Origin: Dehalococcoidia bacterium
GTDB lineage: Bacteria; Chloroflexota; Dehalococcoidia; Bin125
Length of the DNA stretch: 64,000 nt
Reading direction: 5' to 3'
Assembly (NCBI GenBank): GCA_963555985.3
Contig: OY820591.1
Coordinates: forward strand, 1,728,001-1,792,000
The notes beneath the pieces were generated by a model that saw only the letters and a program-made list of their open reading frames with translations, did not search any database and was not told where the DNA came from. Positions 29,676 to 33,063 of this stretch are shown one piece after another (within the stretch, counting starts at the first letter, position 1; every line of letters starts with the position of its first letter). The position numbers were made by a program, and so were the translations under genes.

Positions 29676-29811
29676 CGTTCGTTCTCTCGGCGTGTTGGGC
29701 GGGAACTGCCAGTGTACGCGGGGGGTTGGCTTTGGCCTAGCGCCCGATCGGGGTGACCCTCAGGCGGAGCGTGACGCGGGATACATCCACAAGGGGATTG
29801 TTCGGCTTGGG

Positions 29812-29940
29812 GGTGTTCAGGGAGAAATTTATTTTGGCGTGCGGGGATGCTGATCTCCTGTGTTTTCTGGGGTTTTGGCGTTTGGGGTGTTCAGTCTTGT
29901 TCAGGTTTGGGTGTTCGATTGCGTTCGATTGCGTTCGATT
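29812..29940. repeat. Dispersed intergenic element copy 2, followed by a 10-bp tandem repeat (GTTCGATTGC x ~2.8)
   Basis: Collinear with 4340-4440; tandem unit at 29913-29940. Confidence 0.7.
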
Positions 29941-30009
29941 TTGGACGGATTTGTGCGGACTTGGACGGGGGCGTTCGGGTGGTGTTTGGGATGTGCGCGT
30001 GGTGTCACC

Positions 30010-30243
30010 CGTTGCGTCACCGGCCATTTCGGAGGCTCCTCAACGCAAGGAGCGCGGCACCTATTCGATGATCCACGTTGCGTCACCGGCCATTTCGGAG
30101 GCTCCTCAACGGTCCTCTACCCCAACCCGCACGGCTACTACCGTTGCGTCACCGGCCATTTCGGAGGCTCCTCAACGAGCGTTGCGCGTTGCGTATCCGT
30201 TCGCCATCGTTGCGTCACCGGCCATTTCGGAGGCTCCTCAACG
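30010..30243 (-). CRISPR. CRISPR array: 4 identical 36-bp repeats and 3 spacers of 30 bp
   Basis: CGTTGCGTCACCGGCCATTTCGGAGGCTCCTCAACG at 30010-30045, 30076-30111, 30142-30177 and 30208-30243; unique spacers; minus orientation inferred from the adjacent gene and anti-repeat. Confidence 0.95.
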
Positions 30244-31830
30244 AGATAGCAGCCGGAAGCCGGGCAGCGACGCCTGCGTTGAGTGACCTCCTCCATGATG
30301 GGCGAATTCTGGGCGGCTCCCCCGTTCCAGGTGGTTCGGGATCACAGCGGCCGGGGCGGGAACGCAACACCCGCCCTCTGTCAGAGACAGTTGTAAGACG
30401 TTACGCGCCGCGTTCACGTCGGCGTTGGCGGCGTAGCCGCAGGCGGGGCAGTCGAACGTCTCGCCCTGCCGCGCACCCGGCTCGATCGCGCCACACGCTG
30501 AACATGCTCGGGACGTGTAGGGGGCCGGGACCCTGACTAGATGCCCGCCGTGCTTCTCGGCTTTTTCTCCCACGAGCGTCAGGAATTGGCCCCACGTCTG
30601 TTCGCTGATGCTTCGGTTCAGTCCTCGTTTCTGTTTGACGTTCCGCCCCGGCTCCTCCACGGTGCCGGCAGCGCTCTTGGTCATGTTCGGAATCCGCAAG
30701 TCCTCGGCGGCGATGTGGTCGTAACGCCGCACCAGAGCCTGTGCGATGCGGTGATCCTGCTGGCGACGGCGGATGCGGTTCTTGCGCTTGAGCTTGGCGA
30801 GTCGGCGTTTTCGCCGCTCCAGGGTCTTGCTGCCTTTCCGCGACGGCCGGCGGCGGCTGCGCTTCTTGGTCTTGGTTGCGGTCAGCCGCTGCAAGCGCTT
30901 TTCTTCGCTGTCGTCGGGTTCGCGCTTCGGAATCATGATCCCGTCTGAGAGCGCGACGCGAGTGTTGACACCCAGGTCGAGACCGACCATTTTGCCGGCC
31001 TTGGGCAGCGGTTCACGCTCCACCTCACAGACCAGATCGACGTAGAGGCCGTTTGGAGTGAGGTTGAAGCGCACCTCTTTGGGCTTGCAATCGGGCAAGG
31101 TTCCGGGTGACTTCAGCTTGATCCGCAGGTAGTGCTTTCCCTTATGCTGCTGCGCCTTGTGAAACACCACCTCCGCGCGATGCCCGCAGGCCGAGCGCTT
31201 GACATTGCCAGCCTTGATCATCTTGGAGCCGATGCAGCGCCAGCGCTCGCGCTTCTGGTACTTCGGCATCCCGCGAATTCCACTGAGGTGCGCCTGGATG
31301 CTGTTCTGAGCCTTTGCAATCGCCCAGGCCAGCAATCCAAAGTCGAAATCCCGAAGCTCTGGGAACTCGGCGCGCAGAGGCTTGAGGTCGTAGGTCATGG
31401 AGTTGTAGCCGCGGAAGGCCGGCACGCCCGCTTTGGTTCTGCGGTAGTTGTTGGTCTCGGGCAGTTGACGGCGCTCGCGCTCGGCGTCGGTTCGCTCGCC
31501 TACCACCTCCCACCACTTTTGCCCGGTCTCCTCCTCATCTTCCTTCGTCCACCAGGGCGGCTTGTAGACCTTGCGGTAGACCGGCTCGCCGTTTTCGAGG
31601 ACTGGCTTGCCGTTCTTCATTCTCGGCACGATCCAGTACTGTCCCTGCGGGCCGATGCCCTGCTCCCGCATTCGGCGATAGTCGCGGAAGGCGCGGTATT
31701 CCTCGACGACGGCGTTGTAGATGGCGCACTGGACTCCGGCGATGCGGTGGAGCTTGTCGTAGTCGCTGCGGCGGGCGCGGACGGCGCGTCGCTGGAGGGT
31801 TCGGACGAGAGGTTTGGGGGTGTCGGGCAT
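30238..31830 (-). CDS. tnpB: CRISPR-associated TnpB/Cas12f-like RNA-guided RuvC nuclease (~530 aa)
   Basis: RuvC-I GLDLG, RuvC-II AAEDLRIPNM, GLNRSI, zinc finger CSAC...CPAC, RuvC-III NADVNAARN; start at 31830 (GAGG upstream) or 31872. Confidence 0.93.
   Translation of the reverse strand: MPDTPKPLVRTLQRRAVRARRSDYDKLHRIAGVQCAIYNAVVEEYRAFRDYRRMREQGIGPQGQYWIVPRMKNGKPVLENGEPVYRKVYKPPWWTKEDEEETGQKWWEVVGERTDAERERRQLPETNNYRRTKAGVPAFRGYNSMTYDLKPLRAEFPELRDFDFGLLAWAIAKAQNSIQAHLSGIRGMPKYQKRERWRCIGSKMIKAGNVKRSACGHRAEVVFHKAQQHKGKHYLRIKLKSPGTLPDCKPKEVRFNLTPNGLYVDLVCEVEREPLPKAGKMVGLDLGVNTRVALSDGIMIPKREPDDSEEKRLQRLTATKTKKRSRRRPSRKGSKTLERRKRRLAKLKRKNRIRRRQQDHRIAQALVRRYDHIAAEDLRIPNMTKSAAGTVEEPGRNVKQKRGLNRSISEQTWGQFLTLVGEKAEKHGGHLVRVPAPYTSRACSACGAIEPGARQGETFDCPACGYAANADVNAARNVLQLSLTEGGCCVPAPAAVIPNHLERGSRPEFAHHGGGHSTQASLPGFRLLSR
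30277..30395 (-). ncRNA. Putative tracrRNA/omegaRNA scaffold embedded in the 3' end of tnpB
   Basis: Anti-repeat at 30277-30291; hairpin 30354-30376 whose loop is complementary to the repeat 3' end; boundaries approximate. Confidence 0.65.
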
Positions 31831-31968
31831 CTGTTGGTTTGCCTCGTTTGGGGGATACTCATATGTTCGCATAGTTTGGGCTGAATGGCAAATGGGGGGT
31901 GCTGCGAGGTTGCTGGATTTGTCGTTCAGGAGCAGGCGATGATCCGCGCTCTAGTCGACACGCCGCAT

Positions 31969-32124
31969 GGATTCCCGCGTTCGCGGGAATGACGGAAACA
32001 GAAGTTTTGCACAGGTCTCTCTACGCAGGGGCAGGATTTTGCCGCGCTCCGCCGCGACAATCTCGCCGTGTGAGCGACGACGGTGCAGGTCACAGCGAGA
32101 TACCCGCGGCAAGCGCGGGTATGA
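31969..32124. repeat. Cluster of REP-like palindromes (ATTCCCGCG..CGGGAATGAC family)
   Basis: Palindrome at 31971-31990; 32090-32124 is identical (35 bp) to 60825-60859. Confidence 0.8.
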
Positions 32125-32163
32125 TGGAAGTGAGGGGCGGACCCCCTCTATCCCCTGTTCGGG

Positions 32164-33063
32164 CTAGGGGGAGGCGAGCGGGTAAGAGGAGAGCTCGAAT
32201 ACGCGGGCTGGTTGGCAGGGTTCGTAGTTGAGCCAGAGGGATTCTTGGCGGGTGGTGCGGACGGAGTGGGCTAGGCGGGGATTGGCGTCGACTCGGTTCC
32301 AGTTAGCGAAGAGGTCGTCGTAGAGGGTGGAACGGTAGCCGGAGATAGCGGCGCGGCCTTTGATTGTTTGGAGCAGTTCGGCGAGTTCGCGGTGATCGTC
32401 GTCGGTCATTTCTGCGCCGTAGGCGGCAGCGTCGCCGCGGGACTCGTGGACGTAGGGGGGATCGAGGTAGAAGAGCGTGTCGGGGGTGTCGTAGCGCTGA
32501 ATTATTTCGAGGGCGGGGGCGTTCTCGATCTGGATGCGTTGCAGGCGCTGGACGATCTCGGAGAGGCCCTCAACGGAGCCGAGCCAGCGCGAGACGGCGC
32601 CGGCCATTCCGGCGCGGGAGGTGAGCAGGCAATGCGCCCAGCGTCCTTCGGATGATGTCTGAGCCAAGCCGGTGCGGGTCTGGCGGGCGCGGACGAAGAA
32701 GCGGCGGGCGCGTTCGAGCGGGTCGGCACCGTTCGGGGGCTCGCAGGCTAAGGCCAGTTCCTCGCGCGAAAAGGGAGTGAGGCCGATCGCGCGGATGAGG
32801 TCGTCGCTGGTTTCGGGGTCTCGGAGGACGCGGAAGAAGTTGACCAGTTCGGAATCGAGGTCGTTGTAGGTTTCGACGGGGGCGGGGGCGCGGTTGATGA
32901 TCACGGCGGCGGAACCGCCGAAGACGTCGCAGAAGTGGCGCTCGTCGGTGGGCAGGTTGGGGAGGATGAAGTCGAGGTGGCTGAATTTGCCGCCGTACCA
33001 GCCGAAGGCGATCATGCACTTTCGGCGTCGGGCGGCGTTCTTGACAATGCGGCGGGTAACCAT
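32164..33063 (-). CDS. DNA adenine methyltransferase (Dam/D12 class), no cognate endonuclease seen
   Basis: WYGGK, DVFGGS, YNDL, FYLDPPY motifs. Confidence 0.92.
   Translation of the reverse strand: MVTRRIVKNAARRRKCMIAFGWYGGKFSHLDFILPNLPTDERHFCDVFGGSAAVIINRAPAPVETYNDLDSELVNFFRVLRDPETSDDLIRAIGLTPFSREELALACEPPNGADPLERARRFFVRARQTRTGLAQTSSEGRWAHCLLTSRAGMAGAVSRWLGSVEGLSEIVQRLQRIQIENAPALEIIQRYDTPDTLFYLDPPYVHESRGDAAAYGAEMTDDDHRELAELLQTIKGRAAISGYRSTLYDDLFANWNRVDANPRLAHSVRTTRQESLWLNYEPCQPARVFELSSYPLASP

Follow-up and report, generated by a model that had tools for sequence, protein, structure and literature searches.

About 50 independent origins of Cas12 nucleases from TnpB and 40 candidate branches of the V-U grade have been published (PMC10691335; PMC12669027), and intermediates between transposons and CRISPR systems carry the name TranC (PMC13565253). 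As a class, the transposon-to-CRISPR intermediate is already published; the locus described here looks like a separate, very rare origin. It lies on the minus strand of a 64,000-nucleotide (nt) window from a Dehalococcoidia bacterium (GCA_963555985.3, contig OY820591.1, positions 1,728,001 to 1,792,000; coordinates below are those of the window unless a host contig is named) and comprises a gene for a TnpB-fold effector, P0002, followed directly by a short CRISPR array. We consider it rather probable that this is a stand-alone compact type V system of the TranC / V-U grade, which descends from a solo TnpB of the IS200/IS605 type by a route separate from that of Cas12n and works by the mechanism proposed below. 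The features of such a system are present, namely a RuvC triad with a zinc ribbon, a downstream array that does not belong to another Cas system, and a predicted pairing of trans-activating CRISPR RNA (tracrRNA) with the repeat. An earlier note on this DNA had read the locus as an independent or early TnpB-to-Cas12 transition, and the complementarity between the gene's tail and the repeat, the profile searches and the position in the tree support that reading.

Comparison with described compact systems

Cas12n (V-N / V-U4) resembles the locus in size (544 aa on average, with its tail) and TnpB-like fold, and also in having a disordered C-terminal tail that overlaps the tracrRNA and an anti-repeat–repeat stem (PMC12216341; bioRxiv 10.64898/2026.03.27.714800). 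The TranC intermediates and the candidate subtypes V-U6 to V-U45 share with the locus a TnpB-grade effector followed by a short array of approximately 4-5 repeats of 36 nt, the lack of cas1 and cas2, and multiple independent origins (PMC10691335; bioRxiv 2026.03.27.714800). TranC clades 3, 4, 6, 9, 11, 20 and 24 are described without a Cas12n-like unstructured tail (bioRxiv 2026.03.27.714800), whereas P0002 has such a tail. ISDra2 TnpB, the closest fold to P0002, likewise has its RNA lying over a disordered 3' tail, a pseudoknot at the 3' end of the scaffold and a natural single guide (PMC10097598). Distinct from this IS200/IS605 protein, P0002 is single-copy in a genome without Y1 tnpA and carries an insertion of approximately 65 aa in its REC domain, and an array replaces the one right-end guide. 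Cas12f (V-F, C2c8 / Cas14-type) is similar in its compact RuvC effector, tracrRNA, repeat–anti-repeat pairing and pseudoknot; its tracrRNA is described as lying outside the open reading frame (ORF) (bioRxiv 2026.03.27.714800), whereas the predicted scaffold of P0002 lies within the ORF tail.

Among sequences in the PDB, the best match of P0002 is RdCas12n (PDB 9J09, E 2e-24), and this match spans RuvC only (residues 277-479). Similarly, the V-U4 profile scores P0002 at 158 bits over positions 239-439 of 488 only and not over its full length with REC and WED, which is below the score of many unrelated TnpBs (up to 296 bits, and 345-404 bits in actinomycete scans). The fit of the REC lobe of P0002 to TnpB 8EX9 (Z 16.0, root-mean-square deviation (rmsd) 2.7, 163 aligned residues) is no worse than its fit to 9J09 (Z 14.2, rmsd 3.0, 182 aligned). 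The protospacer-adjacent motif (PAM) of Cas12n is the A-rich 5'-AAN; the only protospacer found here is a self target and has a G/C-rich 5' flank. The predicted RNA layout is Cas12n-like, and membership of P0002 in Cas12n is not supported by profile. LaTranC matches P0002 weakly (E 1.6e-7; Z 16.2). Identity with Cas12f or C2c8 was rejected, with scores below the NCBIfam cut-offs (126 of 350 bits for C2c8 and 70 of 450 for Cas12f2).

The possibility, raised in the earlier note, that the protein belongs to a described subtype is not borne out by profile for Cas12f, C2c8 and Cas12n, and P0002 forms its own long branch among solo TnpBs. On these two grounds, the reading we favour is an independent TnpB-to-Cas12 transition. 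A literature search, with most subscription journals outside its reach, returned no paper attributable to this locus or clade; we think it unlikely, though well within reason, that the clade is already listed in a published catalogue.

A TnpB-fold effector with an intact nuclease site

The effector ORF (minus strand, 30238-31872) encodes 544 aa from its first ATG and 530 aa from the ATG at 31830. We favour the shorter product (gene 30238..31830) because the upstream ATG sits within a promoter-like element, and the 530-aa start is also consistent with the homologue P0003. In keeping with an initial description of a TnpB-type protein of approximately 530 aa that keeps all catalytic residues, P0002 carries the motifs GLDLG (aa 283), AEDL (375), CxxC (443 and 461) and ADVNAA (470), matches PF01385 (OrfB_IS605) and PF07282 (Cas12f1-like TNB) above the Pfam cut-offs, and scores 177 bits on the NCBIfam model guided_TnpB, for which the cut-off is 100. 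The catalytic residues D285 (30978-30976), E376 (30705-30703) and D471 (30420-30418), together with the four cysteines of the CCCC zinc ribbon, are invariant in 64 aligned homologues. The intact D285, E376 and D471 rule out nuclease-dead TnpB derivatives (TldR, Cas12m, Cas12k) as a class, and we put the likelihood that P0002 cuts DNA today at about even.

In the AlphaFold model of P0002, with a predicted local distance difference test score (pLDDT) of 82, the top structural match is ISDra2 TnpB 8EXA (Z 24.0, rmsd 3.0, 325 aligned residues). The REC-domain insertion (31411..31662, residues ~57-140) extends approximately 65 aa beyond the nearest TnpBs and is predicted to form β-hairpins and short helices, with a model confidence of 43-82. 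It is found in P0002 and P0003, is missing from six other aligned proteins, and has neither a Pfam match nor an informative Atlas match. When residues 1-250 of P0002 served as query, only P0002 and P0003 were recovered among 808 candidates. At the opposite end of the protein, the C-terminal tail encoded by the last ~45 codons is disordered in the model, with pLDDT below 50 at residues 495-503 and 511-530. The G+C content at third codon positions is host-like (0.81, versus 0.78-0.87 in the host).

A CRISPR array that begins within the effector gene

The array (30010..30243, minus strand) consists of four identical 36-nt repeats at 30208-30243, 30142-30177, 30076-30111 and 30010-30045, with a period of 66, and three 30-nt spacers: spacer 1 (30178-30207), spacer 2 (30112-30141) and spacer 3 (30046-30075), the last of which matches the host chromosome. 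The stop codon of the effector gene, 30240-30238, lies within repeat 1. We assign the array the orientation of the gene because the predicted pseudoknot and anti-repeat are on the gene's strand. Four identical repeats and three 30-bp spacers right after the gene were what the earlier note had reported, and this stands; its description of the spacers as unrelated needs qualifying, in that spacer 1 bears a weak resemblance to the repeat's 3' half, with 16 matches across an alignment that has one 3-nt gap, a score equalled by 118 of 5000 random 30-mers (2.4%). Spacer 1 could stem from the guide scaffold of a related element, or the resemblance could be chance.

An array scan found no other array of at least three repeats in the 3.33-Mb host assembly (96% complete, 7.5% contamination), and P0002 is its sole TnpB locus. 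The lack of tnpA, cas1 and cas2, first remarked for the window, holds for the whole assembly as regards cas1, cas2 and Y1 tnpA (PF01797); serine-type TnpA was not searched for. With no PF01797 match and a single TnpB locus, a mobile IS200/IS605 TnpB element was ruled out within that same limit. The repeat occurs neither in viral contigs nor in any of 400 genomes of the class, allowing up to 3 mismatches.

Short reads agree with the assembled locus. Specifically, a 1769-nt short-read contig from run X1 spans 30216-31984, and with it the gene–repeat junction, with 1 difference, and a 90-nt contig from the same run covers spacer 3 with 0 differences. Run X1 is possibly the source sample, which makes this a check of the assembly and not independent support. 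Across runs X1-X3, all from one study, the locus is near-identical.

A predicted guide scaffold in the ORF tail

The 3' end of the effector gene appears to double as an RNA scaffold. Stem 1 of the predicted tracr/omegaRNA (30354..30376, minus strand) is a perfect 7-bp stem with a 9-nt loop complementary to the 3' end of the repeat, forming a predicted pseudoknot; 6.67 million positions contain 23 hairpins of this kind, corresponding to 5.5e-4 expected per 160 nt. The middle of the scaffold (30314..30352, minus strand) is conserved as nucleotides and not as protein: when 30352-30314 is translated in a shifted frame, 11 of 13 residues match the in-frame tail of P0003 and P0122, and the segment is therefore conserved as RNA. 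Next comes the anti-repeat (30277..30307, minus strand), which is complementary to the repeat over its full length, imperfectly but without gaps, with 19 Watson-Crick and 3 G-U pairs over 31 positions, equalled at 150 sites in 6.67 million. Its 13 proximal pairs have predicted probabilities of 0.96-1.0, and the anti-repeat/repeat duplex is calculated at -30.7 kcal/mol, which 420 of 19,998 random 35-mers equal.

The anti-repeat is followed by a 33-nt linker (30244..30276, minus strand) that folds as a capping hairpin and leads into repeat 1. This linker is not a spacer, since P0003 and P0122 have similar residues in the aligned part of their tails, and the stop codons of these two proteins are at the position aligned with that of P0002. 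Because it couples the anti-repeat to repeat 1, the first unit would constitute a natural single guide. A guide–pseudoknot–stem layout has been described for TnpB omegaRNA and Cas12 guides (PMC10097598). By eye, the same layout of hairpin loop and 3' end also appears in the TnpB locus L002 described below and, in different letters, in the solo TnpBs L096-L099 and in L015. An Rfam search of the locus gave no match. Taken together, the sequence indicates that gene and array are one unit and that their predicted pairing is not chance. Chance adjacency had been named in the earlier note as what could overturn its reading, and that objection fails here, with the tail complementary to the repeat at two sites and no other array, cas1 or cas2 found in the genome.

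Relatives and phylogenetic position

P0003 is the only full-length relative of P0002 in 5.8 billion clusters; it has 3 members, shares 71% identity with P0002 and keeps the catalytic and zinc residues. A search of cluster representatives added P0122, a 217-aa fragment of a close homologue. The remaining relatives share approximately 40% identity over the C-terminal part and are without the ~65-aa REC insertion. The effector was found in none of the 64 other genomes of the family, and no further effector locus came from scans with P0002 of metagenome and viral contigs or from a scan of genome contigs with a three-protein alignment. Among 107 related loci (ORFs of at least 340 aa, with shorter ORFs and copies of the locus itself dropped), an array lies within 400 nt in 4 cases, 82 loci are array-less, and the other 21 do not extend far enough for a judgement.

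In a tree of 35 proteins chosen from these 107 loci and from later loci, P0002 and P0003 group with a support of 100 in the Shimodaira-Hasegawa-like approximate likelihood ratio test (SH-aLRT), on a branch of ~1.0, and are sister to P0004 and L015 (SH 84). The clade holding these four proteins has a support of SH 99, and the array-less L015, L096 and L097 are among its members. A 130-protein FastTree places P0002 and P0003 in a 36-leaf clade without resolving the exact sister. The approximately unbiased test rejects a grouping of P0002 with the tree's 7 top scorers on the V-U4 profile (p 6.3e-5), which are array-less and hence stand as proxies for Cas12n. A search for a confirmed Cas12n locus covered 401 genomes of the phylum and 104 of the genus of an actinomycete; its 13 top loci all lacked an array. 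One actinomycete protein, L256 (G938:C656:37201-38553), has a long tail and no array within 1.27 kb downstream; as it scores 404 bits, array-less proteins can score very high on the V-U4 profile.

Within the same broad clade as P0002, the 400-aa TnpB L002 (L163:9336-10760; G041:C4:201335-202760), which has an apparent WED deletion, is followed 15 nt downstream by a mini-array of two identical 36-nt repeats and one degenerate repeat, with a matching pseudoknot hairpin. This mini-array is unrelated to that of P0002. L002, a member of the 36-leaf clade, is a singleton: among 22 genomes of the genus, one carries it. We regard it as a second candidate TnpB-to-CRISPR transition. Since L002 carries its own mini-array, either arrays were gained repeatedly in the clade or the link is older than it appears.

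Three metagenome contigs hold TnpB-like genes (383-433 aa) with arrays 124-184 nt downstream (L027:2011-2367, L042:1517-1728 and L077:3686-4105); in the tree they are distant from P0002 and from one another. The solo TnpBs L096-L099 (G431, G145, G192, G133) are multi-copy proteins of ~385 aa with a predicted omegaRNA of ~110 nt, no array and no tnpA within 300 nt upstream, and are usable as array-less comparators.

A promoter-like element shared with methyltransferase genes

Upstream of the effector, the minus strand carries a promoter-like element (31863..31891) of TTGCCA, 17 nt and GAACAT, the latter preceded by TG, which may act as a promoter. The corresponding pattern (TTGCCA, 17-18 nt, GAAC[AG]TAT) occurs 9 times in the host genome, versus 0.02 expected (G000, C1:1759891, 1761118, 1857035, 1863953, 2752781, 3066631; C2:3065; C10:5046, 12023), and the other 8 copies all lie upstream of DNA-methyltransferase-like ORFs with DPPY/DPPF motifs. 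The element may mark a methylase regulon. It fails a scan for the sigma-70 consensus and resembles half of the GTAC-N4-GTTC box at the recA promoter; a reading of the motif as a LexA box was set aside, as only a half site is present, and remains a lead. The small contigs C2 and C10 carry near-duplicates of methyltransferase loci on C1, which fits the 7.5% contamination (strain variants).

Spacer targets and the case against the proposed system

Spacer 3 matches the host at C1:139399-139428 in 29 of 30 positions (32 of 33 with flanks), for which 3e-9 matches are expected by chance. The target lies on the template strand within an APH-family phosphotransferase gene (PF01636), its chromosomal 5' flank is G/C-rich, and the site is present with 3 mismatches in 5 of the 64 family genomes. 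Spacers 1 and 2 have nothing below 7 mismatches in their own genome and nothing within 3 mismatches in the 64 family genomes; by eye, spacer 2 resembles coding sequence.

Several observations weigh against a stand-alone type V system of separate origin. The single mismatch of spacer 3 is at position 24, so that all 23 PAM-proximal positions match a host gene that is intact, and for ISDra2 TnpB specificity is reported to be set by ~12 proximal base pairs (PMC10097598). The host base at position 24 is common to all 5 relatives; the derived state is therefore that of the spacer, with no escape on the part of the target. Such a spacer should not be tolerated by a nuclease that is active and unrestricted. 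Additionally, none of the three spacers matches viral contigs (exact 20-23-nt seeds, 0 matches), phages or plasmids (best E-value 0.3, no spacer match better than E 1), which speaks against a simple antiviral role, with coverage of the host's viruses likely poor. On the RNA side, the energy of the anti-repeat duplex is only moderately unusual (2% of random 35-mers), and the scaffold's minimum-free-energy z-scores, at -1.1 to 0, are unremarkable. The link to an array is known at the P0002 locus alone, P0003 and P0122 being known from protein sequence, and the published V-U criterion asks that two or more clusters within a clade be associated with arrays (PMC10691335). Finally, the trees were built without a confirmed Cas12n, V-U6-45 or TranC sequence, and the long branch could be misplaced.

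A proposed mechanism and its alternatives

We propose a mechanism for the locus in which the steps beyond its sequence features are modelled on TnpB and Cas12n. A methylase-type promoter at 31891 would drive a single transcript across gene and array, and a scaffold of ~170 nt would be freed from the 3' end of the mRNA, as happens for TnpB and Cas12n. A natural single guide, loaded in cis, would consist of the scaffold, the linker, repeat 1 and spacer 1, while repeats 2-3 would pair with the scaffold in trans via the anti-repeat and the pseudoknot, allowing spacers 2-3 to be loaded in trans. A monomer would then recognise a 5' transposon-associated motif (TAM) or PAM, and RuvC would cut double-stranded DNA. 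The spacers may have been laid down by Cas1-Cas2 of an earlier host or in trans. We propose that the array is now frozen because no Cas1-Cas2 is present, and that the host tolerates spacer 3 because the flank of the chromosomal target is unusable as a TAM.

An account with guides in cis only would make P0002 a plain TnpB with one omegaRNA, composed of scaffold, repeat 1 and spacer 1, and would leave repeats 2-4 and spacers 2-3 as an unloaded archive. The conserved 33-nt hairpin that covalently joins repeat 1 to the anti-repeat fits this account, as does the fold nearest to ISDra2 TnpB, and it would explain why the self-matching spacer 3 is harmless. However, the four repeats are perfectly identical, the anti-repeat is long enough for pairing in trans, and the REC insertion is an accretion of the type seen in Cas12 lineages (PMC10691335). 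On balance we consider the cis-only account unlikely.

A once-active compact type V locus that acquired a self spacer, and that is now barely expressed or no longer cuts, would account for the self-matching spacer with its unmutated target. The lack of detected adaptation genes, an effector found in none of the 64 other family genomes, and a -10 element far from consensus are compatible with such silencing or decay. Against this, the ORF, the catalytic triad, the predicted RNA pairings and the promoter-like element are all intact, and the locus is near-identical in the three runs of one study, which makes a silenced or decaying system quite improbable. To a similar degree we doubt that the locus is a CRISPR system caught at the point of guide splitting and turned to the host, with a first omegaRNA still unsplit in the tail and stop codon of the gene, a methyltransferase promoter, no adaptation machinery and guides to bacterial chromosomal genes, which would regulate the host's own gene or discriminate against the DNA of close relatives.

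It is very unlikely that P0002 is an RNA-guided regulator that binds without lethal cutting, represses chromosomal genes such as the phosphotransferase gene and is co-regulated with DNA methyltransferases. The sole identified target is indeed a host gene, matched on the template strand, spacer 2 looks coding-like, and the promoter-like element is common to 8 methyltransferase ORFs. Yet P0002 has a canonical RuvC triad, unlike TldR and Cas12m (PMC13565253), the target is in the middle of a gene and not at a promoter, and spacers 1-2 remain unmatched at the thresholds given above. Chance adjacency, in which a solo TnpB landed next to an orphan array of another system, agrees with most related TnpBs being array-less and with repeat ends unlike those of the omegaRNAs in the nearest solo TnpBs, but it is largely refuted, and highly improbable, given two separate tail–repeat complementarities, a stop codon within repeat 1 and a genome in which no further CRISPR system was detected.

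The locus is best described as a coherent compact type V locus of known grade and probably of separate origin, with a convergent Cas12n-like RNA layout and a puzzling self spacer. If active, it would provide a programmable nuclease of 530 aa, or ~490 aa once the tail is removed, that comes from a TnpB branch matching no tested subtype and probably has a PAM of its own, and the locus itself supplies a single-guide design. It would repeat the Cas12n architecture by convergence. With repeat 1 not yet separated from the scaffold, the coexistence of cis (omegaRNA-like) and trans (tracrRNA–CRISPR RNA) guides is directly testable, and the tolerated self spacer offers a ready test of autoimmunity avoidance in early type V systems.

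Genomic setting

The effector is inserted between trmD and rplS together with a Dam-family (D12) DNA methyltransferase gene (32164..33063, minus strand; PF02086) that has the same promoter-like element. In 15 of 18 family genomes the distance from trmD to rplS is at most ~215 nt, and neither the effector nor the Dam-family gene is found at 29 rplS loci of relatives. Dispersed palindromic elements resembling repetitive extragenic palindromes or miniature inverted-repeat transposable elements lie on both sides of the locus (31954-32127 and 29810-29946). One 90-nt palindromic copy, 32038-32127, finds its best match (4 mismatches over 89) ~400 nt away from the target of spacer 3; among 60 near-full copies, one other ties with this match, and the proximity is possibly chance.

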